Below, piece by piece: positions 3,699 through 27,158 of a DNA stretch of 31,694 nt. The notes beneath the pieces were generated by a model, which worked only from the letters and a program-made list of their open reading frames with translations, ran no database searches and was not told the DNA's origin. Location of the stretch: positions 1 through 31,694 of IMG/VR virus record IMGVR_UViG_3300045988_104496, one strand, 5' to 3'. Numbering within the stretch: position 1 is the stretch's first letter; the number at the start of each line of letters is the position of its first letter. The translations under genes and the position numbers were made by a program. The stretch comes from a virus. Its lineage: Duplodnaviria > Heunggongvirae > Uroviricota > Caudoviricetes > Peduoviridae.

Positions 3699-4889
3699 TT
3701 AATTGCTGTTAACCGAGGTGACCAGATTTGCCAGGTATTTATCGGTAATACGCTGGCGCAGGGTCAGGTTTTCGAGAGGAGGCACCGGTGTATAGTCGTA
3801 GTCGATATACAGTTTTCCGGCCTTGAGGGTTTCCGCATCGTTGGATTCTTCGCTGAACCAGCAGGTCGCATCCACGATATAGCCGTTTGTTTTCAGCTCA
3901 CGGAATTTGGCATTAATGCCGTCAACGATGTCGCGAATCAGCGTTGCGGTGATGGGCTTATCCACAGCCCACATGTGCGCCTCAGCCATCGTGTCGGCCA
4001 GCACCTGCGCAGTGCGGGTGTAGTTCTCAAAGAGGAACAGCGGGTCATCAGAGCAGGTACGGTTACCCCAGAAGCGGAAACCGTCGCGGCGAATCAGCGT
4101 TGTGACGCCTGCCTCGTTCAGCAGGTCAGCATCGGTGCCGGACTCCTGCAAATCCCAGAATACAGATGCGCTGATGCCGGTAACACCGTTCACCCCGACG
4201 TTGGACAGCGTTTTATGCCAGCCCTGCTCCTGGTCGATTTTAGCACGCAGCCCCAGCGCACGGGCGGTGGCATACGCGGTGGCGGTGGTACTGGCGACCG
4301 TATCCCATGCGAGGAAATCCGGCCAGATGACCATCAGCTCACGCTGGCTGAAATTCTGGCGGTAGGCTTTCACCTCGGAAATGGTTTTACAGCCCCATGC
4401 GCTGATATACCCGAAAGCGCGCAGCTTCTGACAGACTGATGCCAGTGCAACAGCCACCTCTTTGGTGTCCAGTCCCGGCACGCCGAGAATACGCGGTTTA
4501 ACACCGGTTACCGACTCCGCCGCCAGCAGGGCTTTCAGTCCGGTGTACTGACCGTTTTCGTCGGTGGTGCCGATGATATTGGAAACGGTCTGCGCGAGTT
4601 TCGTTTCTTCGTCTTCGCCGGTGCCGTCTTCCACACGCACGACAACGGTGACCGGTTTTGACTGGTCGGCGATGGCCTGTAACGATGCCGCCAGCGTGCC
4701 TTTTTTACCGGCCTTTGCAATTGCGCTCTGGGCATTGGTAATCAGCACAGGTTTATTGAGGGGGAAGGTTTCCGCATCCGCATCGCTGGCCGTGCAGACC
4801 ATGCCGACAATGGCAGTGGATACGGTGGAAATGACGCGGGTGCCGTCGTTAATCTCCAGCACCTGCACGCCATGATGATAGTCACTCAT
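3699..4889 (-). CDS. FI: Contractile tail sheath protein (P2 gpFI-like)
   Basis: 396-aa ORF, P2 FI size, first gene of the FI-FII-E-T block. Confidence 0.9.
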   Translation of the reverse strand: MSDYHHGVQVLEINDGTRVISTVSTAIVGMVCTASDADAETFPLNKPVLITNAQSAIAKAGKKGTLAASLQAIADQSKPVTVVVRVEDGTGEDEETKLAQTVSNIIGTTDENGQYTGLKALLAAESVTGVKPRILGVPGLDTKEVAVALASVCQKLRAFGYISAWGCKTISEVKAYRQNFSQRELMVIWPDFLAWDTVASTTATAYATARALGLRAKIDQEQGWHKTLSNVGVNGVTGISASVFWDLQESGTDADLLNEAGVTTLIRRDGFRFWGNRTCSDDPLFLFENYTRTAQVLADTMAEAHMWAVDKPITATLIRDIVDGINAKFRELKTNGYIVDATCWFSEESNDAETLKAGKLYIDYDYTPVPPLENLTLRQRITDKYLANLVTSVNSN

Positions 4890-5218: not shown

Positions 5219-5812
5219 TCAATTATGTAAATCTTTTGTTTTATGTTCTTTGGTGTGTTGTGACAACAAATGGCTATAGCGTTTAAGCAAAATATTAGAA
5301 AGATTAAGCTCATTCATGAAGTGTTCTTCTAATAAGTAACCATCAATATCAACTTTAATATCATTACCACTTTTCATCTTCTGTAACGTAGATTTTACAC
5401 GCTCCAGCAGGATGCTTTGCTCATGGTAATAGTCCATAAGAAGAGTAACATCCTCTTTATCAAGCTTACTTAATTCGCTGAAGTAGGATTTAAACACTTT
5501 ATCAGTCTGGTTTAATGCAATCTGTAAGCGAGGCCCCCCTAATGATTTGACATTAATGGCAAAAGGCTCGCCAACAAAATGCTCCGAATTTTCGTCAAAG
5601 CCAATATATCTCGTTTTATCAAGAAAAGTGAGAGCGCGATGGTTATTAGCGATTTCATATGCAAACATTGTTCTGATACTGTCCCTCTCAGCCTCCATAG
5701 TTATATCATCACGATGATTTGTATAAAATATATTTCCAACAAAGAGAACCATAGCAAGAATCACTGAACTTGCCTCCCAGTTAATATTTTTTAATCGTCG
5801 CTTAGTAAACAT
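5219..5812 (-). CDS. Low-GC accessory (moron) protein at the P2 Z/fun position; predicted single-pass membrane protein of unknown function
   Basis: 197-aa ORF with an AAGGTG Shine-Dalgarno 4 nt before the ATG. N-terminus is a basic stretch (KRRLK) followed by a hydrophobic helix (SSVILAMVLFVGNIFY). The gene and its flanks (about 4890..6033) are markedly AT-rich compared with the neighbouring tail genes. Sits between G and FI, where P2 carries Z/fun. Confidence 0.6.
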   Translation of the reverse strand: MFTKRRLKNINWEASSVILAMVLFVGNIFYTNHRDDITMEAERDSIRTMFAYEIANNHRALTFLDKTRYIGFDENSEHFVGEPFAINVKSLGGPRLQIALNQTDKVFKSYFSELSKLDKEDVTLLMDYYHEQSILLERVKSTLQKMKSGNDIKVDIDGYLLEEHFMNELNLSNILLKRYSHLLSQHTKEHKTKDLHN

Positions 5813-6033: not shown

Positions 6034-6561
6034 TTATTGCGGCATTTCCGGCCATTCAGGATTTGCAGGATCCACACGACTGACCAGAACGCTGTAACGC
6101 TCCCATGCATCCAGTCGGCTACGCTCCTCATCTGTTGCCATGTTCAGTCTGACCGCGCGCTCCAGCGGCAAAATCACGGATTCAGCATCTGCAAGAAGTC
6201 TGGCTTTCCGGTTTTCTGCCTGCTGCAGCAATTCCTCTGCCGTATAAATGCGTTTAATCACTTTGCCGTCCTTAAACATCCAGTTCCCTGAAATGTCCGC
6301 CCGTCGGTTAGCAGTAATATCCGCCACTTCAACAACACTTAATCCATCCGGTCTGATAGCTGTCACATCCTTTTCCACATAGCGGATGATATTATCTTTG
6401 TCGTACGCTATTTTTAGCGTGTCATCAGCAAAATACTTTTGTTCTTCGTACCAGTTCTTACCATCTTCTGAAAAAAACCAGACAACATCAAAGTCTTTTG
6501 TCAATTGATATTGTTCAACCGTTTTTGGATTACCCGCCGTAATATTTTTTAAATGCTGCAT
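6034..6561 (-). CDS. G: Tail fiber assembly chaperone (P2 gpG / Tfa-like)
   Basis: 175-aa ORF directly downstream of the tail fiber gene, ending in the Tfa-type C-terminus (...[11 protein letters not shown]). Confidence 0.85.
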
Positions 6562-6564
6562 AAA

Positions 6565-9324
6565 TTATACCTGCGCCACGTTATACCATGTCCCGTTAAT
6601 GTATTTCTGAACCGGTCTGTAATATACACCACCAATGTTATCGGCAGAGTTTGAGCCGGTATCCTGAACAATAATGCCGGAATATACACACCCGGACGGT
6701 GCCTGATGTGTCCATGTCATGCCATTGTTCGCAGGTTTGTATGTGGCAGCACCACCAAGCCGGATATCCCGGACATAGCGGGAATCAAAGTTACCGTAAT
6801 CCGAGGGATTAACACGCCCCGTAATATTTATGGTTTTATTACTTTGAATACTTCCCGAGACAAAGCGCATAACATGGACGCTATTAGCATAAACATCCAG
6901 ATTACCATCACCATTTTGTTTAAAGCCCGTGTCATTATCACCCAAAACAATCGAATTACCGCCAAGAGCACTGGATGTTCCTATACCCAGAGCACCATTC
7001 AATTGACCACCAGATAACGGCAGTGCACCGACATCTCCCGCTGTAGGTTTTCGCGTTGTGGTATAAAACTCAGACCAGTCAGCCTCGAATCCGTAACCGT
7101 CACGAGCAGAACGATAAAAAATACCGCCGTTCTTATAATTAACGCGGAACTGGGCGGCGGGACAACTTCCTTCACCGATATTAAAATGAAGAATTAACGT
7201 TGATGCCCCACCAGTAGTTGCGTTATAGGCTCCGCTACTCCAGTTCCACCCAACGGCTTTATCATTCGCAACGGTGTCTCCTGTTTTTCCTGAAGCAAAT
7301 GCACCAATATTTTTCGGCGTCAGGTTAATATCTGATGTTCCATCAAACGAAACGTTATTAATTTTACGGGCTGTTTTCAGCTTTGTTGCTGTCGCCGCAT
7401 TGCCGGACAGTTCACCAGAAAGGCCAGCACTGAATGTCTGTTTCGCGCCCCATGTCTGGGCTTCGTCAATGATTGGTACTCGTCTTGCTGTGATCGTGCG
7501 GCTTCCCGGATTTCCTGAAATACGCACCATAAAAAATCGGTAGTTCGCTTTACTTACAGTGCTGCGCCATACATGCATTGAGCGCCCCGTACCGGAATCA
7601 TCACTCGGACCAACTGCGATGTTTATCAGGTTGCCATCAATGACGCCCCAGTCCATACCGTCGGGAATATTGGTCATATTATCCAGCCTAACGGTTATCA
7701 GACTGCCCGGCACAAAATCGTAGGTCTGCCAGTCCAGGCTGGTGAGCTTTGCCACAGCACCGCCGATACCCAGATTCAGGGGAAGTGAATACGAGGTGTA
7801 GACTTCCCGCCATTCGCTCCATGAGCTGCCGGTAAAGACGCGCTCAAAGGTGCGGCCTTTAAGGGTTGTACCTGTTCCGGCAGTTGTATAACGCTGCCAT
7901 ACATTAACACCATCAAACCGCCTCAACACTTCCAGAATGCCGAGTACAGTCACGCCGTTTCCGTCCAGTACTGGACCGTTGGTCGCTTTACCTGTAACGC
8001 TGTAAATACCTGGTGAGGTTACATCATTCAAATCACCTTCGTAATAACGACTCTCTGACTGATGACCGACTCTTAACCACGGTTCCCACTGCGGATTTGA
8101 TGCATCCCAGCTTGCCGCAAGGCAGCGGACATACATATTTCCACGGCGAGTGGTATAACGTTGCGTTCTTCCATAATTTCCGCCTTCGAGGATCTCAAGC
8201 ATCCCCTGAGCAAAGCCGCCTTCCTCTGGATAATTGCGTTCATATGAAGCTATAGCCGAGCTACTGTTACGCCATAAACCAAGATGTTCGGCGGCTCCAA
8301 GCGTATTCAGGTCTATAGTCGTACTCAAAGGGCGGGTAGCTGATTGAGTGTGACGCCATATGCCCCACGGACCATCAGAGCCATTCCACTTATTGGCGAG
8401 TCTGCGTATGTATACATTGCCGTCTCTCGTGGTGAAGCGTTGCGTACCTGCAAAATTGCCGGCAGCAAAAACCTCAAGCACACCGACAGCATTATCTTCC
8501 GGGAAATTTTTCTCCAGTGTTGCGTTAGTTGAGGTAGTTTTAGACCAGATTCCCAGATAAGCCTTAACGGGACCAAATGTATTCAGATCAGCATCAAGCG
8601 GCATTTCGCCATTGTTTTTCATAAACGTCAGGCTGGTAACGCCAACATTGTCCAGAAAAGCGTCCTTATCTGGAATATCGCCACCGTTCTGGTCTTTCTG
8701 CAGACGTTTCTCAGCATTGTCATAGGCTGCTTTTACTGCCTTTGGCGTTGCAGCCTGCTTTTCACTGGTGCTGTTTGTTGCACTGCTTAACTGAGTAAAA
8801 CCTTTTTCTGTCAGCGTGGCGTCAGGATGGCGGCGGGACTGCTCATGCTCTGCGATTTTGTCATCGACGTAATCCTGCGTCGCCATCACTGTGCTGGCAT
8901 CAATACTCAGCTCAACGGACGCCACGTTGCTGAGAATAATAACCATGCGGCAGGTCTGCGCACGTCCGGAGCCTTCAGCCAGTTCTGGCTTATAGCTTTC
9001 TGCCATGTTGGATACCGCAATCAGTGTTCCGGCATCGTCATACAGACCAAGCTCACGCATCCAGAAGCCGCCCACTTCTGGCGGAACAACCAGTTCAGCC
9101 ACGATATAGTTTTTATTCTTGTTATCCACACTGACTTTATTCAGTGCATGACGCCAGACTTCATGCACCAGTTTCGTCTGACCGGCATCCGGCACCGGCA
9201 ATTGGCCATTACCGTCACCCACAGCCATTGCAGACAGGTTTACTTTTTTCCCGCCGGGAACAGTGGCGGCTGCCAGCTTCGCGGCTCCGGCAGTAGTGAT
9301 AACGGTTTTAAATTTCGTGCTCAT
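6565..9324 (-). CDS. H: Tail fiber protein (P2 gpH-like N-terminus, divergent extended C-terminal receptor-binding region)
   Basis: 919-aa ORF. N-terminus MSTKFKTVITTAGAAKLAAATVPGG... is P2 H-like. The central part has three tandem repeats of about 80 aa sharing L..EVL/ILEG..N.G.TQRYTTR.G..Y.R. A GNAATATKL motif typical of long tail fibers is present. P2 gpH is about 669 aa from memory, so this one is longer and mosaic. Confidence 0.9.
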   Translation of the reverse strand: MSTKFKTVITTAGAAKLAAATVPGGKKVNLSAMAVGDGNGQLPVPDAGQTKLVHEVWRHALNKVSVDNKNKNYIVAELVVPPEVGGFWMRELGLYDDAGTLIAVSNMAESYKPELAEGSGRAQTCRMVIILSNVASVELSIDASTVMATQDYVDDKIAEHEQSRRHPDATLTEKGFTQLSSATNSTSEKQAATPKAVKAAYDNAEKRLQKDQNGGDIPDKDAFLDNVGVTSLTFMKNNGEMPLDADLNTFGPVKAYLGIWSKTTSTNATLEKNFPEDNAVGVLEVFAAGNFAGTQRFTTRDGNVYIRRLANKWNGSDGPWGIWRHTQSATRPLSTTIDLNTLGAAEHLGLWRNSSSAIASYERNYPEEGGFAQGMLEILEGGNYGRTQRYTTRRGNMYVRCLAASWDASNPQWEPWLRVGHQSESRYYEGDLNDVTSPGIYSVTGKATNGPVLDGNGVTVLGILEVLRRFDGVNVWQRYTTAGTGTTLKGRTFERVFTGSSWSEWREVYTSYSLPLNLGIGGAVAKLTSLDWQTYDFVPGSLITVRLDNMTNIPDGMDWGVIDGNLINIAVGPSDDSGTGRSMHVWRSTVSKANYRFFMVRISGNPGSRTITARRVPIIDEAQTWGAKQTFSAGLSGELSGNAATATKLKTARKINNVSFDGTSDINLTPKNIGAFASGKTGDTVANDKAVGWNWSSGAYNATTGGASTLILHFNIGEGSCPAAQFRVNYKNGGIFYRSARDGYGFEADWSEFYTTTRKPTAGDVGALPLSGGQLNGALGIGTSSALGGNSIVLGDNDTGFKQNGDGNLDVYANSVHVMRFVSGSIQSNKTINITGRVNPSDYGNFDSRYVRDIRLGGAATYKPANNGMTWTHQAPSGCVYSGIIVQDTGSNSADNIGGVYYRPVQKYINGTWYNVAQV
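7790..8580 (-). repeat. Three tandem intragenic repeats (about 80 aa each) within the tail fiber gene
   Basis: Seen in the translated ORF: ...GTQRFTTRDGNVYIRRL...W, ...GRTQRYTTRRGNMYVRCL...W, ...VWQRYTTAGTGTTLKGRTFERV...W. Coordinates are approximate. Confidence 0.6.
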
Positions 9325-19963: not shown

Positions 19964-20997
19964 TGAGCAAGAAAAAAGGGAAAACACCGCAACCTGCGGC
20001 AAAAAAAATGACCGCCAGCGCCCCGAAAATGGAGGCATTCACCTTTGGTGAGCCGGTGCCGGTGCTCGACCGCCGTGACATTCTGGATTACGTCGAATGT
20101 ATCAGTAACGGCAGATGGTATGAGCCGCCGGTCAGCTTTACCGGTCTGGCAAAAAGCCTGCGTGCTGCCGTGCATCACAGCTCACCGATTTACGTCAAAC
20201 GTAATATTCTGGCTTCAACGTTTATCCCGCACCCGTGGCTTTCCCAGCAGGATTTCAGCCGCTTTGTGCTGGATTTTCTGGTGTTCGGTAATGCGTTTCT
20301 GGAAAAGCGTTACAGCACCACCGGTAAGGTCATCAGACTGGAAACCTCACCGGCAAAATATACCCGCCGTGGCGTGGAGGAGGATGTTTACTGGTGGGTG
20401 CCGTCCTTCAACGAGCCGACAGCCTTCGCGCCCGGCTCCGTGTTTCACCTGCTGGAGCCGGATATTAATCAGGAGCTGTACGGCCTGCCGGAATATCTCA
20501 GCGCCCTTAACTCTGCCTGGCTGAATGAGTCGGCCACGCTGTTCCGCCGCAAGTATTACGAAAATGGCGCACATGCCGGATACATCATGTACGTCACCGA
20601 TGCCGTGCAGGATCGCAACGATATCGAAATGCTTCGCGAAAACATGGTGAAGTCGAAAGGCCGCAACAACTTTAAAAACCTGTTTCTCTATGCCCCGCAG
20701 GGGAAAGCCGACGGCATTAAAATTATCCCGCTCAGTGAAGTGGCGACGAAGGACGATTTTTTTAATATCAAAAAAGCCAGCGCCGCTGACCTGCTGGACG
20801 CACACCGCATCCCCTTTCAGTTGATGGGTGGCAAGCCGGAGAACGTCGGGTCACTGGGTGATATTGAGAAAGTGGCAAAGGTCTTTGTCCGCAATGAGCT
20901 AATCCCGTTACAGGACAGGATTCGGGAAATAAACGGCTGGCTCGGCCAGGAGGTCATCCGCTTTAAAAACTACTCACTGGACACTGACAACGGCTGA
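19963..20997 (+). CDS. Q: Portal protein gpQ
   Basis: 344-aa ORF, P2 Q size; its ATG overlaps the P stop (ATGA). Confidence 0.9.
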   Translation: MSKKKGKTPQPAAKKMTASAPKMEAFTFGEPVPVLDRRDILDYVECISNGRWYEPPVSFTGLAKSLRAAVHHSSPIYVKRNILASTFIPHPWLSQQDFSRFVLDFLVFGNAFLEKRYSTTGKVIRLETSPAKYTRRGVEEDVYWWVPSFNEPTAFAPGSVFHLLEPDINQELYGLPEYLSALNSAWLNESATLFRRKYYENGAHAGYIMYVTDAVQDRNDIEMLRENMVKSKGRNNFKNLFLYAPQGKADGIKIIPLSEVATKDDFFNIKKASAADLLDAHRIPFQLMGGKPENVGSLGDIEKVAKVFVRNELIPLQDRIREINGWLGQEVIRFKNYSLDTDNG

Positions 20998-21002
20998 ACA
21001 TC

Positions 21003-21024
21003 GCCGCCTGCGGGCGGCTTTTTT
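21003..21024 (+). terminator. Rho-independent terminator after Q
   Basis: gccgcc-tgcg-ggcggc followed by TTTTTT, 6 nt after the Q stop. Confidence 0.7.
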
Positions 21025-21166
21025 ACACCCCGTCATCACGCCCTCACACGCTCACCACCGCACAAAACACCCCGCAGACACACCAACGCCCTAGCAGGCC
21101 AAGTAAACGCCTTCACGACGCGCTCAGACGCTGAAAAAATAAAATCCGCACCACCGCCAGCGCGCA

Positions 21167-21185
21167 GTGCTTTCCCCGCCTCGCC
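21167..21185 (-). other. cos: cos site (19-nt P2 cohesive end)
   Basis: Plus strand gtgctttccccgcctcgcc is the exact reverse complement of the P2 cohesive end GGCGAGGCGGGGAAAGCAC as I remember it; position next to Q is as in P2. Confidence 0.7.
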
Positions 21186-21509
21186 CGCCCGCTTCATAGG
21201 GCGCTTTTAATGCAATTGCATTAAAACACAGTAACCGCATCAACACTGGTAACAAACATGGAAAAGCATGGCAACTAACACACGCAAAAAAATGCACTTA
21301 ATGAATGCAGTAATAAAAATCTCAGGAAATTGACAATTCATTTATTTTTTCAAAATCCCAGTTAGTTAAAGGCTCGCTATCATTACAAGCAATCAAAAAA
21401 TGTCTTAGCTCTAACAGCAAGTAGTAATAGTAGTTGCCACCAACAAGCGTTAACATTACCATAACAAACAACAAGCATTCCTACACCTACATCAGATGAA
21501 CAGGTAATT

Positions 21510-22874
21510 ATGATTAATTTAATTATGGGTGGTTTTCCCGACCACTACGACCACTGGAAACCATTCAGCCAAAATAATGGAGAATTCTCATTTCTTTTAT
21601 CACGAATGTTTGAAAACACCTCCGATGGTATTCGCAAAAAACTATCCCCATTAAGCAGCAATGTACTATCTTATCTTGAAAAACTCCCAACAATATTCAT
21701 GAGTGAAGCTTATCAAATAGAGGGAGCAAAACCTTATTATGTCGACATACGAATTGGAAGAATTTCAAATATTCACATTAAGGGAAAAGAAATCAACTTC
21801 CAATTTGCAATCACCCATACACACAATGAAATCAAAATATCAGACGCCAAAAGTGTTGAAAGCAGTTTAGAACTCGGAACTTATGGCCTTAAAAGAACAC
21901 ACTGGGCCATAAAAGACAAAAATATAGATGATATCCTTAAGACATTTGGTATTAACCAAAATGCACAAGTGGATAGCAGTCCAGCGCCTCTCCCAGACGA
22001 AGATAGCACATTATTAACCGTAAATAGTTTACAAGAATTTATTGAAAAAGTTCTCCATATAACAGCAGATATGGATGAGGAGATTTTTTACAGGGGTCAT
22101 TCAGATTCATCTTATGAACTTGCACCATCTCTTTTCAGAAAATATGAAAATGGGAACTATAAATTTCTACATAATGAAATCAACCTTGTTAAAGAAGCAT
22201 TGAGCGCAAGACCCTCAGAATTCATTGATGATACATCAATGCTTGATAAACTTGTAAGAATGCAACATTATGGCATACCTACTCGCTTACTTGACATCAC
22301 ATCAAATCCATTAATTGCACTTTATTTTGCATGCAGTAGTATAAATTCCGACAAAAACGATATCGATGGTCAAGTAATAATATTTAAAACACACAGAGAG
22401 AACATTAAATTTTTCGATTCCGACACTGTCAGTTGCATATCTAATTTATGCATGCTATCAAAAGACATGAAAGACAAGCTTTCTTTCGAAGAAAGAAATA
22501 ATGATTTTAACAACTCTCATGCTTGCCTTAAACTCTTAGAATCCATAAAGCATGAAAAACCATATTTTCAAAGCATAATAAATCCAGATGATTTGGAAAA
22601 GATAATTTTTGTAAAAAGCAGGATAAATAATGAAAGAATATCATCTCAATCCGGTGCCTTTTTATTATTCGGTAATAACGCCGTTTTTCCTGAGATATCC
22701 AACGATCAGGCAGATAATTCACCATACAACTTTAAGACAGAAAAAATAAACATCAGAGACAAAAAGAAAATTTTAAAAGAACTTGCCGTGCTCAATATTA
22801 CTGATGCCACTGTATATTTAGGATTGGAAAGAACAATGAAACTAATCACAGAAAAATACACATTAAAAAATTAG
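21510..22874 (+). CDS. FRG-domain protein, function unknown; candidate anti-phage cargo gene
   Basis: 454-aa ORF in a strongly AT-rich island. Contains the two FRG-domain signature blocks, EEIFYRGHSDSSYELAPSLFR and LVRMQHYGIPTRLLDITSNPLIALYFAC, recognised from memory of the Pfam FRG family. AGGT 6 nt before the ATG. Sits where P2 has old/tin. Confidence 0.65.
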   Translation: MINLIMGGFPDHYDHWKPFSQNNGEFSFLLSRMFENTSDGIRKKLSPLSSNVLSYLEKLPTIFMSEAYQIEGAKPYYVDIRIGRISNIHIKGKEINFQFAITHTHNEIKISDAKSVESSLELGTYGLKRTHWAIKDKNIDDILKTFGINQNAQVDSSPAPLPDEDSTLLTVNSLQEFIEKVLHITADMDEEIFYRGHSDSSYELAPSLFRKYENGNYKFLHNEINLVKEALSARPSEFIDDTSMLDKLVRMQHYGIPTRLLDITSNPLIALYFACSSINSDKNDIDGQVIIFKTHRENIKFFDSDTVSCISNLCMLSKDMKDKLSFEERNNDFNNSHACLKLLESIKHEKPYFQSIINPDDLEKIIFVKSRINNERISSQSGAFLLFGNNAVFPEISNDQADNSPYNFKTEKINIRDKKKILKELAVLNITDATVYLGLERTMKLITEKYTLKN

Positions 22875-22982
22875 CATTCCATAACCAAAATATCTCCATA
22901 CTTCCCCGCAGAAATTAAGGCTACGGGGAAATAACATCAGTAAGTATCTTAAGAACAATATAATCACTTACAGGAACCTGTA

Positions 22983-23960
22983 TTAAAGTGCAGTACTTGC
23001 TTTTAATGTAAGCACCTTTGATCTATAACGTTGTTCAATTACCCCCATAGAATGCAATCGTCCAAATAACTTTTTGGCAGTATGAGTTTCTCTTGCACAC
23101 GCTGCATCCTTTATCATTTTCCAATATTCAATTTCTTGAGACATTAAAAGATGCTGCTTATTCCTGACTTTTAAAGAACCGCCCAAAACAATAACACCTG
23201 TTACCAACTTAGGCTTTTCTCTACTATAAATTTTTGTTTTATCCGCATGCATCACATGACCATGCTTATTTATTATTTTGCGAATCACTGAACAAAATAG
23301 TCTATTAACGTTTTGTCCTGAAAAAGTTAGATCATCAACATAAACAGACATATTTACGTGTAGTTTATTACAAAGTTGGTGTATTTCTCCGAACATTCTT
23401 GAATTTGCAAAATATGCAAGAGGCATACTAATCCTGCTACCTGTAGGCAAACGCCCATAGCAAGTACATATATACGATAATACATCCGCAACATCAGATG
23501 ACATCTTCATAACAGAAAAAAAGAATGAAAATATCATTTCTCTAGTAGTTGATGGAAAAAAAGCCCTGATGTCGGTTGTCATCAACCTTTCATTATTAAG
23601 GTGGATTTTAGCATTAGTAACATTAGAACATCCCTTCTTTCCAGAATGTAGATAATCTGGCAAGGTAATTCGCGATAGCAGACTTGCAATACGAGTATGC
23701 ACCACATCTAATTTTTCTAATGGTTTTTGTATCTTACGTGGCTTTCCGTTTTTAGATAACTGTTCAAAAATAGAATAATTGCCTTCATCTTTTTTTAAGG
23801 TTGATAAATCCCCTACATCAACCCCCAATAAAGAAGCCAATTTCCTTTTACTTCTCATTTTATAAAACGGCGAATCAATTATATCGTAAGATTTATTTTT
23901 AGTGGAAATTTTGAGTTTTATTCGTCTTTTCATTTTTCTTATTCGCCCACTCAATAACAT
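22983..23960 (-). CDS. Retron-type reverse transcriptase (start codon uncertain)
   Basis: Contains the retron RT hallmarks in order: NAxxH (VTNAKIHL), motif A (TDIRAFFPS), motif B-like LPTGSRISMPLAYFANS, catalytic YVDD (SVYVDDLTF) and the retron VTG motif (KLVTGVIV). Overall length and N-terminal pattern resemble Ec86-class RTs as I remember them. Alternative starts at 23933 (MKRRIK) or 23858 (MRSKRK); none has a strong Shine-Dalgarno. Confidence 0.8.
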   Translation of the reverse strand: MLLSGRIRKMKRRIKLKISTKNKSYDIIDSPFYKMRSKRKLASLLGVDVGDLSTLKKDEGNYSIFEQLSKNGKPRKIQKPLEKLDVVHTRIASLLSRITLPDYLHSGKKGCSNVTNAKIHLNNERLMTTDIRAFFPSTTREMIFSFFFSVMKMSSDVADVLSYICTCYGRLPTGSRISMPLAYFANSRMFGEIHQLCNKLHVNMSVYVDDLTFSGQNVNRLFCSVIRKIINKHGHVMHADKTKIYSREKPKLVTGVIVLGGSLKVRNKQHLLMSQEIEYWKMIKDAACARETHTAKKLFGRLHSMGVIEQRYRSKVLTLKASTAL

Positions 23961-24231
23961 CTAATACTTTACCAGCTAAATTTAAACGGAAACGCTTAGA
24001 TAAACGCCCCTGCGTACCTAACGATTCTGAAAAAAATACTAAAGAAGATACCGGCATATCGAAATGGGAGGCGTAACGCTGTAAAACATCAATTGTAGGC
24101 GACCAAACCCCACTTTCGAGTTCTACTATTTTTTCTTTTGGAATACCTAAAGATGTTGATAAATCAACCAATGACTCTTTATGGTATTGCCTTATTAAAC
24201 GAAGGGCTCTGTGTAACATAGGCAACTCCAT
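23899..24231 (-). CDS. XRE-family helix-turn-helix protein, directly upstream of the RT gene
   Basis: LHRALRLIRQYHKESLVDLSTSLGIPKEKIVELESGVWSPTIDVLQRYASHFDMPVSSL fits the Cro/C1-type HTH pattern. The likely true start is the second Met at 24219, which has GGAG 6 nt upstream. The 3' end overlaps the longest RT reading frame. Confidence 0.65.
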   Translation of the reverse strand: MELPMLHRALRLIRQYHKESLVDLSTSLGIPKEKIVELESGVWSPTIDVLQRYASHFDMPVSSLVFFSESLGTQGRLSKRFRLNLAGKVLDVIEWANKKNEKTNKTQNFH

Positions 24232-24255
24232 GCTATTGAAACTAGGGAGGACGCA

Positions 24256-24411
24256 TTACTCATCACCCCCTTCAAAGTAGTCCAGTGCTCGAGTGGCTAA
24301 ATCAAACAGTCTAATACCCCATTTGATTAATTTCCAAACATAACCAGCCCACTTTTTCAGGTTTGACTTGTTCTGCGCCTGCTGTTCGTTGGTTAATTTA
24401 TCATTCTTCAT
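24256..24411 (-). CDS. Small ORF (51 aa) with a consensus Shine-Dalgarno; hypothetical small protein
   Basis: AAGGAG, a 6-nt spacer, then ATG at 24411; encodes MKNDKLTNEQQAQNKSNLKKWAGYVWKLIKWGIRLFDLATRALDYFEGGDE with a Trp-rich amphipathic segment. The 3' arm of the upstream hairpin (CATAAG) abuts and partly overlaps the SD. Confidence 0.4.
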   Translation of the reverse strand: MKNDKLTNEQQAQNKSNLKKWAGYVWKLIKWGIRLFDLATRALDYFEGGDE

Positions 24412-24660
24412 GATTTGCTCCTTATGCCCATAGTGTGCAAACGATATGTCTGCTCCAACACTATGGTTCGCCCTCATAAGGATGAGATTGAACAGCACTA
24501 GCCCCCTGCTCCACGAACCCTTGGTCGCCCAAAGGGTTCGAATACCCATACGCCATACCGCCTGATCCTGTGACTCTTGTCGCTGGCAGGGGCGTTGCGC
24601 GGGGTAAATGTTAGAAAGCGTTAACTTTCCACGGGTAAAGTTACCCAATTGATGGCGATG
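24412..24660 (-). ncRNA. GC-rich structured leader; candidate retron msr-msd ncRNA (boundaries not determined)
   Basis: A GC-rich patch inside an AT-rich island. On the minus strand there is a long imperfect hairpin of about 15 bp at 24421..24480, a 9-bp stem cgaaccctt/aagggttcg at 24514..24540, and further short hairpins at about 24612..24650. The only ORF covering it needs a TTG start and has odd amino-acid composition. No convincing a1/a2 inverted repeat pair was found by eye. Confidence 0.35.
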
Positions 24661-24827
24661 TATCTCACTAACTAACCAATGTTTGCATCATAACAAGTAA
24701 ACCGTTGTATTTGATCTCCCTATATATAATATTTTTTTATATTAAATAAACAATTAATAAATATTAAACATAAAACATATTAAAGCGACCTCCTCTATGC
24801 CTTCATTGCATTGAATTTTAACGTTTT
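24661..24827 (-). promoter_or_regulatory. AT-rich putative promoter region for the ncRNA/small ORF/HTH/RT operon
   Basis: Minus strand reads TTGTTT, a 17-nt spacer, then ATTATA/TATATA around 24745..24715, followed by gggagatcaaat... Positioned between the A stop and the structured leader. By-eye promoter call only. Confidence 0.3.
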
Positions 24828-27158
24828 TTATATAAAAAATGACACTTCATCTTGAAATCCGAACCACTCATCAGCGACCGGATACGTGAATTTTTTCCCG
24901 TCATAATTTACGGTCGCGCCACGCGCCAGCGCCTCAAGCTCCCATCGCTGCGGCCTGATACCGTTCTGAGCAAGGTCAACGCGGATACGGGTAATTTGCA
25001 TTCGTTCCGACCGGGCCAGTCTGGCCGATGGTGCAATTTCATGTGGTTTTAACGGGCTTCCGTTTCTTTGCTGACGATTTGGCGTTCTCCGACCGTGTTT
25101 TAATGCACCTCTGAGCGCCCTCACGACCTCCGGGTCACTCCATTCGATAACACCGTCATCAACCAGATTAAGCACTGCTGCGGCGTGCTCAGAAGGTGTG
25201 GGAACCGGTAACGAAGTATCACCACCGGTGAGTTTTCCACAGTTATTGACAGGACTCCGAGGCGCGGCGATGCCGCTTTTTAAAGTCAAAGGCTCAACGA
25301 CCGGAACTTTCGGCACAATGCGCCAGTCCGTCGTTCTGGTGATATGAATATGACGCGCGCCGAGATGCGGCGCGTAAATGCCGACCACTCTCTCGACTTC
25401 TTCCTCGTACTCGTTAACGTCATCCGACGGGATACGGGCGACTCTGACAGTCTGACAATCGCGCGGGACATTTGCCCCACCCTGCGCGCTGATATACAAC
25501 GCAAAATCACCACTGTCTGCGGCGGCGCGTGCAGCCTCGACGCGCTCGTCAAACTCATCAGCAATGCTGACGCCGCGCGGCAATTTGCGTAGTTCACGGT
25601 AAGCCCCCATTGTCGGCAGGCCAACCGTTTTAAATTGCGGGATGCGCCACGTTGACGCCCATGCGCTAACAGCCGCTGCAGTGTCTTTCAGCGGCCTGCC
25701 GGTGTCGTTATCGAGCTGACCATCCAGTGCATAGCCGTCGATGTTTTTTGAAATGTATTTCGCGATATATCCCGCAGCACCGCCCCGGTTAAGATGTTTT
25801 GCCTGAAAACGGTTTCGCGCGGCTCCTCTTTCGTCGCCATCCTCTTTGAGCGCATAGCGACGCATGATTTCGATAATCTGGTTACGCTGGCGCGGATTAC
25901 AAAAAAGCATCATATGCCAGTGCGGCGTTCCGTCGTGGTGTGGCTCGACGACACGCAAACCGTAGACCTGTAAATCATTATCCTTGAATGCCGTGCGCAT
26001 CAGGCTCCAGATACGGCAGAGATAACGCTGCGCATCCTTTGGATTAAATGCCTCATCGTTCCAGCCGTGATTTAGCTGGACGGTTTTACTTTCGCCTTTT
26101 CTGACCTGACGTGTCGGGTGATACTTTGACGGCGCGGTCAGCGTGATAAACATCCCCACATCACCCTCTGCTGCGGCGTAACGCTCAATACCGGCAATGG
26201 TGTTCATCAGCTCCATCCGGCGAATTTCAGGATTAGAAATACTGCCCATCACCTTACTGATAAGGTCGATGCGCTCGCCGGTTTCCCTGTTTTCGAGATC
26301 ACACGATTTAAGAAATTCCAGATTTGCCTGGCGGCGTGCACGCACATCACGAATGGCATGTTTACTGGCATAAGGAGAACGGTCTTTATTGACCTCCCCG
26401 ACAGCAATCAGTAACGCCTCATGCCAGCGCATACGCTGGCCTTTAAGCTGATGGGTCCACCACTCATCGTTAAACAGACGGACAATGGCAGAATATGCCT
26501 GCCTCGTGGTCATCTGCCCTTTACGGTATTTTTTCCAGTAGAGAGGGGAAATATTGAAAGCACGTGCAGCACCAGCAACATGACCATAGAGGTGAGCCTG
26601 CGCCTCATCCGTAAACAGCGATTCTTTTTCGCCATGCGCATCCACCCAGGCATCGCAGAGTTCCTCATACATCATGAAAAGCTGCGATGAGATACGGGCG
26701 GCAAACTTTTTCAGCTCCTTGTCATTCATCCCCGGCAGACGCGCATAATGGTCACGCTCTGCCAGAAACAGCAACGACGCGTCGGTGTTCATTTCATGGC
26801 GCTGATTCACACGCTCAATGCGCGGCCATAAACGACGCTGAAAAGTGGATGTGAGAAAATAAAACCCGTGCACCGGGCTTTTATTGCGCCGGATGTAGTC
26901 ATAGCGTGAAGTAAACAGCGAGCGCAAAAAGTAAGGCAGGCGGTTAATCGTGGATAAAACACCTTGCACCTGACGCATCTCGTCACGTGTAAGGGGTCTT
27001 TCGCGCCCGACAGCCTCGCGTGGCGCGTTCCATGCATAAGCACCGGTAAACGCCTTACCGGTGCCTGCGGCAAATGCTGACGGAGGGACAAAACGCCCGG
27101 AGGCTTTAACGGCCATATGAGCCAAAAGCCTCTGAACAACGCTTGCTGAGTTGCTCAA
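24828..27158 (-). CDS. A: Rolling-circle replication initiator (P2 gpA-like)
   Basis: 776-aa ORF with the HUH metal-binding motif (VEPHHDGTPHWHMMLF) and paired active-site tyrosines (YIAKYISK). The true start may be the Met at 27116, giving about 762 aa close to the P2 A size. Confidence 0.9.
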   Translation of the reverse strand: MSNSASVVQRLLAHMAVKASGRFVPPSAFAAGTGKAFTGAYAWNAPREAVGRERPLTRDEMRQVQGVLSTINRLPYFLRSLFTSRYDYIRRNKSPVHGFYFLTSTFQRRLWPRIERVNQRHEMNTDASLLFLAERDHYARLPGMNDKELKKFAARISSQLFMMYEELCDAWVDAHGEKESLFTDEAQAHLYGHVAGAARAFNISPLYWKKYRKGQMTTRQAYSAIVRLFNDEWWTHQLKGQRMRWHEALLIAVGEVNKDRSPYASKHAIRDVRARRQANLEFLKSCDLENRETGERIDLISKVMGSISNPEIRRMELMNTIAGIERYAAAEGDVGMFITLTAPSKYHPTRQVRKGESKTVQLNHGWNDEAFNPKDAQRYLCRIWSLMRTAFKDNDLQVYGLRVVEPHHDGTPHWHMMLFCNPRQRNQIIEIMRRYALKEDGDERGAARNRFQAKHLNRGGAAGYIAKYISKNIDGYALDGQLDNDTGRPLKDTAAAVSAWASTWRIPQFKTVGLPTMGAYRELRKLPRGVSIADEFDERVEAARAAADSGDFALYISAQGGANVPRDCQTVRVARIPSDDVNEYEEEVERVVGIYAPHLGARHIHITRTTDWRIVPKVPVVEPLTLKSGIAAPRSPVNNCGKLTGGDTSLPVPTPSEHAAAVLNLVDDGVIEWSDPEVVRALRGALKHGRRTPNRQQRNGSPLKPHEIAPSARLARSERMQITRIRVDLAQNGIRPQRWELEALARGATVNYDGKKFTYPVADEWFGFQDEVSFFI

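Follow-up and report, generated by a model that had tools for sequence, protein, structure and literature searches.

The DNA analysed here, hereafter called the window, is the whole 31,694-nucleotide stretch of IMG/VR virus record IMGVR_UViG_3300045988_104496 (Peduoviridae), a P2-like prophage. Its gene of interest is an open reading frame (ORF) of 454 amino acids at positions 21510-22874 on the plus strand, which codes for a two-domain protein of the FRG family and lies in a cargo island beside a type VI retron. An earlier note, made from the sequence alone, had placed an FRG protein at this ORF, and that identification held. The motifs FYRGHSD, PSLFR and QHYGIPTRLLDITSNPLIALYFA are found at residues 193, 206 and 252, respectively, and a hidden Markov model (HMM) search of the kind the note had suggested matched Pfam FRG (PF08867) over residues 191-281 with 76.9 bits (E 2.4e-21), well above the gathering cut-off of 25. 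The match covers model positions 2-92 of 94 and includes the (F/Y)RG motif, here FYRGHS at residues 193-198. The ATG start codon is supported by an N-terminus, MxNLIMGG..., that is conserved among full-length homologues. The features of the gene are as follows.

21510-22874, plus strand: coding sequence of 454 amino acids plus stop codon (from the ORF list), a two-domain FRG-family protein with a PUA-like N-terminal domain, a linker and an FRG module.
21510-21959, plus strand: N-terminal domain, residues 1-150, with a predicted PUA-like beta-barrel fold (ASCH/EVE/YTH-like); proposed sensor or ligand-binding module.
21600-21620, plus strand: motif S31-R32-x-x-E35-x-T37, in which R32, E35 and T37 are at least 95% conserved in 148 diverse representatives (conservation count).
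21894-21914, plus strand: motif R129-T130-H131-W132-A133-x-K135, 80-90% conserved across architectures (alignments).
21960-22010, plus strand: inter-domain linker, residues 151-167, poorly conserved (alignment variable and gappy; predicted local distance difference test score, pLDDT, 59-67 in the blocks covering residues 151-170).
22011-22871, plus strand: FRG module, residues 168-454, a proposed NAD+-dependent effector; its Pfam FRG core, residues 191-281, is at 22080-22352.
22086-22103, plus strand: F-Y-R195-G-H-S at the end of predicted strand 190-197, invariant in 40 homologues; R195 is a candidate NAD-binding arginine.
22263-22310, plus strand: Q252-H-Y-G-x-P-T-R259-L-L-D262-I-T-S-N266-P, a strand followed by a helix (alignment and predicted structure).
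22641-22661, plus strand: S-S379-Q380-S-G382-A-F384, before strand 383-387 (alignment and predicted structure); Q380 is a candidate catalytic residue.

The exact protein occurs on 589 contigs of public collections, where entries from Escherichia coli and Peduovirus P22H1 call it 'FRG domain-containing protein'; an identical copy is present in P22H1 and in 60 complete E. coli genomes. It matches PHROG 4962 over its full length (E 1.4e-200), a family annotated as being of unknown function. Full-length homologues of about 450 amino acids are common in Enterobacterales, Aeromonas, Rhizobiales, Pseudomonas and other groups, and FRG is a common bacterial domain: the search gave 3,517 relatives among the candidates scored, and at least 556 species-representative genomes were found to have relatives. 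The gene itself was known previously, having been annotated as an FRG protein, catalogued in a survey of the P2 hotspot and covered by a PADLOC candidate. New here are the assignment of the C-terminal region to the FRG module, the recognition of a shuffled PUA-like N-terminal domain that had not been annotated before, and the rejection of a retron link on comparative data.

The Pfam FRG match leaves 190 residues on its N-terminal side and 173 on its C-terminal side. The earlier note had described a protein of three parts, with an FRG domain between two unrecognised flanks; the sizes of the flanks were borne out, but the C-terminal one is not a separate region. Residues 168-451 match 14 PADLOC PDC-S15 models end to end and form one conserved block in homologues down to 33% identity, and the C-terminal 173 residues therefore belong to the FRG module, of which the Pfam model spans just the first third. 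These matches, obtained in the search of defence-system profiles that the note had also proposed, are full-length: the best model, PDLC04936 (E 7.3e-98), is covered at positions 21-297 of 300 (277 of 300), and PDLC04933 (E 7.9e-97) at positions 8-282 of 286.

Description of FRG as a domain of unknown function, as in the earlier note, has to be qualified by a published prediction. A passage in a paper from the Aravind laboratory, the sole statement on FRG function that the literature search returned, places Frg in the ADP-ribosyltransferase (ART) superfamily as a potential antiviral effector, maybe a NADase (PMC9503650). The conserved residues of the module are R195 (after a strand), R210, H253, P-T-R259-L-L-D262, N266-P and S379-Q380-x-G382 (before a strand), with R195 and G196 retained in members at 33-44% identity, and this pattern would suit an ART site of the R type or a NADase site. 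No conserved glutamate was seen at the classical ART position in the alignment of the module, and no R-S-E or H-Y-E triad was verified. The AlphaFold model of the full-length protein (pLDDT 81.9) gave no Foldseek match in the PDB at E <= 1e-3, with weak YTH matches and none to ART folds, and nothing was returned at E <= 1 when a profile of the full-length family was searched against PDB sequences. No solved FRG structure was found, nor did the literature search return experimental work on FRG or PDC-S15.

The N-terminal flank, likewise unrecognised in the earlier note, gave no match to sequence models, which agrees with that note, but its predicted fold could be assigned, as that of a discrete PUA-like domain. 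Structure prediction and fold searching of the flanks had been among the checks suggested. A domain-only model of residues 1-166 had a pLDDT of 90.9 and a predicted template modelling score of 0.86, and its beta-barrel was PUA-like. Lower-ranked structural matches (scores in brackets) included Lon-N (5.3), McrB-N (4.9 and 4.6) and the 5-hydroxymethylcytosine-specific enzyme PD-T4-3 (4.6); the less sensitive Foldseek likewise ranked YTH at the top, with an E of 0.025 that is not significant. Structural scores on such a predicted model fix the fold class of the domain, not its function. Sequence searches with the domain returned nothing from Pfam (E <= 10), NCBIfam or PDB sequence profiles (E <= 10), and it matches neither the EVE, YTH and ASCH models (Pfam E <= 10) nor the ASCH signature, G-x-K-x-x-[ETS]-x-R (PMC9599836). 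Compared by sequence, S-R-x-x-E-x-T shares with that signature only the spacing i, i+3, i+5 and the central glutamate. Because there is no sequence-model match and the motif has just this much in common, the domain is a fold relative and not a member of the EVE, YTH or ASCH families. Ten positions (R32, E35, T37, P60, E66, G83, R129, H131, W132 and K135) are 80-97% conserved across the 148 representatives, a pattern that would fit a ligand pocket.

A profile of the N-terminal domain searched against 1.84 billion representatives found 868 clusters (at 50% identity) with E <= 1e-3, and the domain is nearly always located upstream of an effector domain. Among 66 longer members, the partner was a CAP12/Pycsar-type TIR in 19, FRG in 13, Abi_C in 6, TIR_2 in 6, TIR in 4, protein kinase in 3 and SEFIR in 2, with KAP NTPase, Schlafen AlbA_2, EAD2 and AbiJ_NTD3 found once each. 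Since the same domain precedes TIR, SEFIR, Abi_C, kinase and FRG alike, FRG appears to be interchangeable with established NADase-type and abortive-infection effectors. Such shuffling, as judged from domain architectures, is typical of the sensor or regulatory modules that conflict systems contain. Neither PUA-TIR fusions nor FRG are mentioned in the eLife 2020 conflict-systems paper or in the EVE/DCD survey.

Several individual architectures were also recorded. A metagenomic protein of 760 amino acids (P0184; L016 6001-8283) combines a DncV-like nucleotidyltransferase (residues 52-136), the N-terminal domain (313-444) and FRG (482-747); its gene is flanked by transposases, and the fusion hints that the N-terminal domain could bind a nucleotide signal. 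Among the larger proteins P0219, P0195, P0263 and P0229 are a chain of 867 amino acids with EAD2, the N-terminal domain, a protein kinase and an FGE-sulfatase domain, a fusion to a kinase (786 amino acids) and one to a KAP NTPase (1061 amino acids). In a fourth, of 314 amino acids, the domain follows the N-terminal region of Lamassu LmuA. These architectures are typical of NTP-dependent conflict systems.

The gene sits in a prophage defence hotspot, as the earlier note had proposed, and the prophage is P2-like. Over 21212-24900 the window shows 100% identity with Peduovirus P22H1, and the same cassette is carried by the 60 complete E. coli genomes. The cargo island is flanked by the portal gene gpQ, with its end at 20997, and by the replication gene gpA (24828-27158), and a distance of 325 bp separates the FRG gene from an exact P2 cos site; the variable cassette between gpQ and gpA adjoins cos, as does cargo of the P2-like hotspot. 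The low GC content noted earlier is also evident, at 0.33 for the ORF and 0.35 for the island (21212-24827) compared with 0.526 for the remaining window. The flanking features are the following.

21167-21185, minus strand: exact match, with 0 expected by chance, to a 19-mer that we take to be the P2 cos sequence; it is outside the gene, marks the cos-proximal cargo hotspot, and coincides with the ends of the linear P22H1 genome.
21434-21462, plus strand: promoter-like site TTGCCA, 17 nucleotides, TACCAT, 48 bp upstream of the ATG (sequence scan; weak evidence).
22902-22930, either strand: hairpin between the convergent FRG and RT genes, with no U-tract on either strand (folding scan).

The cos-proximal gpA-gpQ hotspot has been described as a reservoir of anti-phage systems, in which P2 itself carries old and tin (Rousset et al. 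2022, PMC9122126), and an arrangement of 'hypothetical + FRG + RVT_1' is listed in the supplementary hotspot table of the same paper. Expression signals were less clear than the earlier note, which gave the gene its own promoter and terminator, had claimed. The promoter-like site upstream of the gene comes from a region with 17 such sites against 14.8 +/- 4.2 in shuffled sequences, which is not an enrichment, and the scan found no terminator downstream of the FRG gene. The hairpin located there folds with -18.9 kcal/mol (z -3.5) on the retron strand and, more weakly, with -11.9 kcal/mol (z -1.8) on the FRG strand.

A second low-GC cargo gene was observed elsewhere in the window, at 5219-5812 on the minus strand (197 amino acids, GC 0.348, inside a 36% GC dip). 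It is between the tail-fibre-side genes (6034-9324) and a gene at 3699-4889, which is where P2 has its second variable region (Z/fun type). PADLOC gave no match to this gene, which may be a further candidate exclusion gene.

Homologues of the FRG protein were found in other mobile contexts. One, 48% identical, occupies the same P2 hotspot beside unrelated genes of 198 and 243 amino acids; another, 58% identical, is in the tail-fibre/sheath hotspot of Klebsiella P2-like prophages. A 47%-identical homologue is at the end of a lambdoid prophage beside a PD-DExK/NucC-like protein, and a 56%-identical one has SIR2-HerA two genes away in an integrase/AlpA island. At 33 species loci, where the two ORFs closest to the FRG gene on either flank were surveyed, models of GajB (Gabija) match at least three ORFs and those of IetA at least three, counts that are lower bounds taken from the best 25 model rows and that have no matched control. 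PDC-S15 was nominated from its embedding within BREX, DISARM or type I restriction-modification (RM) loci, and the PDCs are a set of 145 untested candidates (Payne et al., bioRxiv 10.1101/2024.01.29.577857). Together, the mobile-element contexts and the GajB and IetA neighbours support a predicted role in defence.

Two of these loci showed further features. Upstream of the Klebsiella homologue, P0007, and on its strand lies a gene of 439-465 amino acids (L002 6510-7829, plus strand; L003-L005 6432-7829) with no Pfam or PADLOC match, possibly a local partner of P0007 or a further cargo gene. The SIR2-HerA pair (L017 2657-5661, plus strand; HerA E 2.7e-181, SIR2 E 1.1e-48) is two genes upstream of P0013, a Morganellaceae homologue; the surrounding integrase/Fic/AlpA island includes several other genes, of 343-504 amino acids, that have no annotation.

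The neighbouring RT (reverse transcriptase) gene, at 22983-23960 on the minus strand, is convergent with the FRG gene, as had been noted earlier, and 108 bp from it. PADLOC models of the type VI retron matched it (RT_VI, E 1e-105) and the adjacent helix-turn-helix (HTH) protein (HTH_VI, E 7e-30). The HTH gene, at 23899-24231 on the same strand, overlaps the RT gene by 62 nucleotides. An Rfam scan of 20900-25000 returned no family and did not place the retron non-coding RNA (ncRNA); perfect 9-nucleotide hairpin arms at 24428-24466 and at 24514-24540 could belong to an msr/msd region. In related retron VI loci a 51-amino-acid 'hypothetical protein' lies just upstream of the HTH gene (L014 5274-5429, L015 5264-5419, L001 5255-5410). 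Over the corresponding stretch in the window there is a 130-amino-acid ORF with a TTG start (24256-24648, minus strand) that has no Pfam or PADLOC match, and this region may be the retron ncRNA instead of a coding gene.

The interpretation we favour, to which about an even chance is given, is that this is a stand-alone, prophage-borne anti-phage gene of the superinfection-exclusion or abortive-infection type, independent of the retron, in which sensor and effector would be joined in a single chain. As a stand-alone candidate, the gene fared as the earlier note had expected, with its PDC-S15 match, its place in the P2 hotspot and homologues near SIR2-HerA, Gabija, Iet and a NucC-like nuclease. 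The PUA-like domain (residues 1-150) would bind an infection-associated ligand. The structural relatives of the domain point to a nucleic-acid or nucleotide feature, for example a modified base, as the most likely one. Binding of the ligand would switch on the FRG module (residues 168-454), an ART-superfamily-like enzyme, which would then consume NAD+ by hydrolysis or ADP-ribosylate a target. The infected cell would stop making phage, and the lysogen population would be protected. While the gene, its two-domain anatomy, the fold class and shuffling of its N-terminal domain, the mobile and defence-associated settings, and the independence from the retron have direct support, we infer the defence activity and the activation of FRG by the N-terminal domain; the NAD+ chemistry and the nucleic-acid or modified-base ligand are each less certain than the overall interpretation.

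A functional partnership with the adjacent type VI retron, in which the FRG protein would be its effector or accessory, had been raised as conceivable in the earlier note and is very improbable. The FRG allele adjoins the retron allele in all 60 complete E. coli genomes that carry it, and the two convergent units are merely 108 bp apart, but what co-occurs is a single, nearly clonal cassette at >=99% identity. In 38 of 98 E. coli genomes, and likewise in Klebsiella phage ST147-VIM1phi7.1, diverged retron VI alleles (75-80% nucleotide identity) occupy the same hotspot without FRG, and other small genes take its place. Conversely, in four other contexts FRG homologues, at 48-58% identity, are without any RT or retron, and an analysis of co-occurrence, as the note had recommended, found RT or HTH_VI within 10 kb of FRG homologues at none of 80 loci from 80 species. 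Co-transcription is ruled out by the opposite orientation, RT_VI and HTH_VI already fill the retron VI models completely, and steady co-occurrence of FRG with RT_VI, HTH_VI and the ncRNA was not observed. The partnership was therefore rejected, and the comparison of loci indicates that the FRG gene and the type VI retron are independent cargos of one P2 hotspot.

Three other explanations concern what the protein does. The N-terminal domain may be a substrate-targeting module that docks on RNA or DNA (such as tRNA, rRNA or phage DNA), with FRG ADP-ribosylating nucleic acid in the manner of DarT or of ART toxins directed at tRNA or rRNA. This is unlikely, insofar as the domain is fused to effectors of unrelated substrates (protein kinases, KAP NTPase, TIR and SEFIR), which better suits a general sensor, and neighbouring antitoxin or immunity genes are absent from all contexts examined. 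Alternatively, it could be a receptor for a second messenger made elsewhere in the cell, like SAVED, STING or the cNMP-binding domains of CBASS and Pycsar effectors, as suggested by the prevalence of CAP12/Pycsar TIRs among its partners and by the single chain of P0184. That fusion, however, is a single example, no cyclase or nucleotidyltransferase gene is present in the island or the other contexts examined, and carriage as a lone gene in a prophage hotspot suggests self-sufficiency, so that a receptor of this kind is improbable. We give similarly little credence to a non-defence prophage moron, whether acting in counter-defence on NAD or ADP-ribose signalling, in lysogenic conversion or as a selfish toxin. 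Phages do carry NAD- and ADP-ribose-processing counter-defence enzymes (PMC9503650), the PHROG family has no assigned function and the defence function of the gene is a prediction. However, homologues are also borne on chromosomes and islands outside phages, near SIR2-HerA, Gabija and Iet, the family was nominated from BREX, DISARM or RM loci, viruses are under-represented among the carriers of ART NADase-type domains, which typically belong to host immunity (PMC9503650), and the hotspot is a documented defence reservoir (PMC9122126).

The anti-phage interpretation admits a broader, and rather doubtful, extension, in which the N-terminal domain would be a widespread, unannotated sensor that reads a nucleic-acid or nucleotide mark specific to phages, for example a hypermodified base, and switches on NAD+-consuming or other suicide effectors (FRG, TIR, SEFIR, Abi_C and kinases). 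If true, the recognition logic of type IV restriction would be coupled to abortive infection in place of DNA cleavage, and this gene would provide the first functional handle on the FRG domain. A PUA-like module that is repeatedly placed ahead of these effectors would represent a new family of sensors in bacterial immunity, and knowing its ligand would account for how many single-gene systems are triggered. Should FRG prove to be a NADase or an ADP-ribosyltransferase, another fold would be added to the NAD+-centred defence repertoire. The E. coli/P2 allele is an easy test case: it is a single gene accompanied by its native promoter region, the phage and host form a well-studied pair, and it can be assayed apart from the retron.

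Comparison with known systems places the gene as follows. P2 old and tin share its slot, proximal to cos between gpQ and gpA, and its presumed lysogen-protecting role (PMC9122126), but neither is homologous to it, and old is described as an ATPase-TOPRIM nuclease (PMC9122126). Like PDC-S15, with which it shares the match at residues 168-451, it is a single-gene unit in a defence setting; all model matches begin at residue 160 or later, so the PUA-like domain is not covered, and membership is of a predicted and not a characterized family. Compared with the ART toxins that use NAD+ (RES/ParT, pertussis-like ArtA, TreX), it has neither a verified R-S-E or H-Y-E triad nor a cognate antitoxin gene, and none of these toxins was found by the Foldseek and PDB sequence searches with this protein. 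Type IV enzymes with PUA-like readers (the EVE-HNH enzymes VcaM4I and TspA15I, the McrB N-terminal domain, the GIY-YIG enzyme PD-T4-3) differ in carrying a nuclease domain, whereas Pfam detected no nuclease family in the FRG protein or among the 66 N-domain proteins, so that a type IV nuclease is not indicated. The effector here is FRG, with TIR, SEFIR, Abi_C or kinase in paralogous architectures, and the reader has no sequence-level relation to the EVE, YTH and ASCH models. A direct link to the validated bSEFIR protein was considered and rejected, as the bSEFIR model covers the SEFIR part and not the N-terminal domain in the one N-domain protein checked. There is also a parallel with the single-protein abortive-infection systems that deplete NAD+, bacterial SEFIR and TIR-based candidates such as PDC-S35. 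Some chains carry the N-terminal domain together with SEFIR or TIR domains to which the bSEFIR and PDC-S35 models match, and while the effector fold is FRG/ART-like here and TIR-like in those systems, the predicted arrangement of a sensor joined to an NAD-consuming effector is shared.
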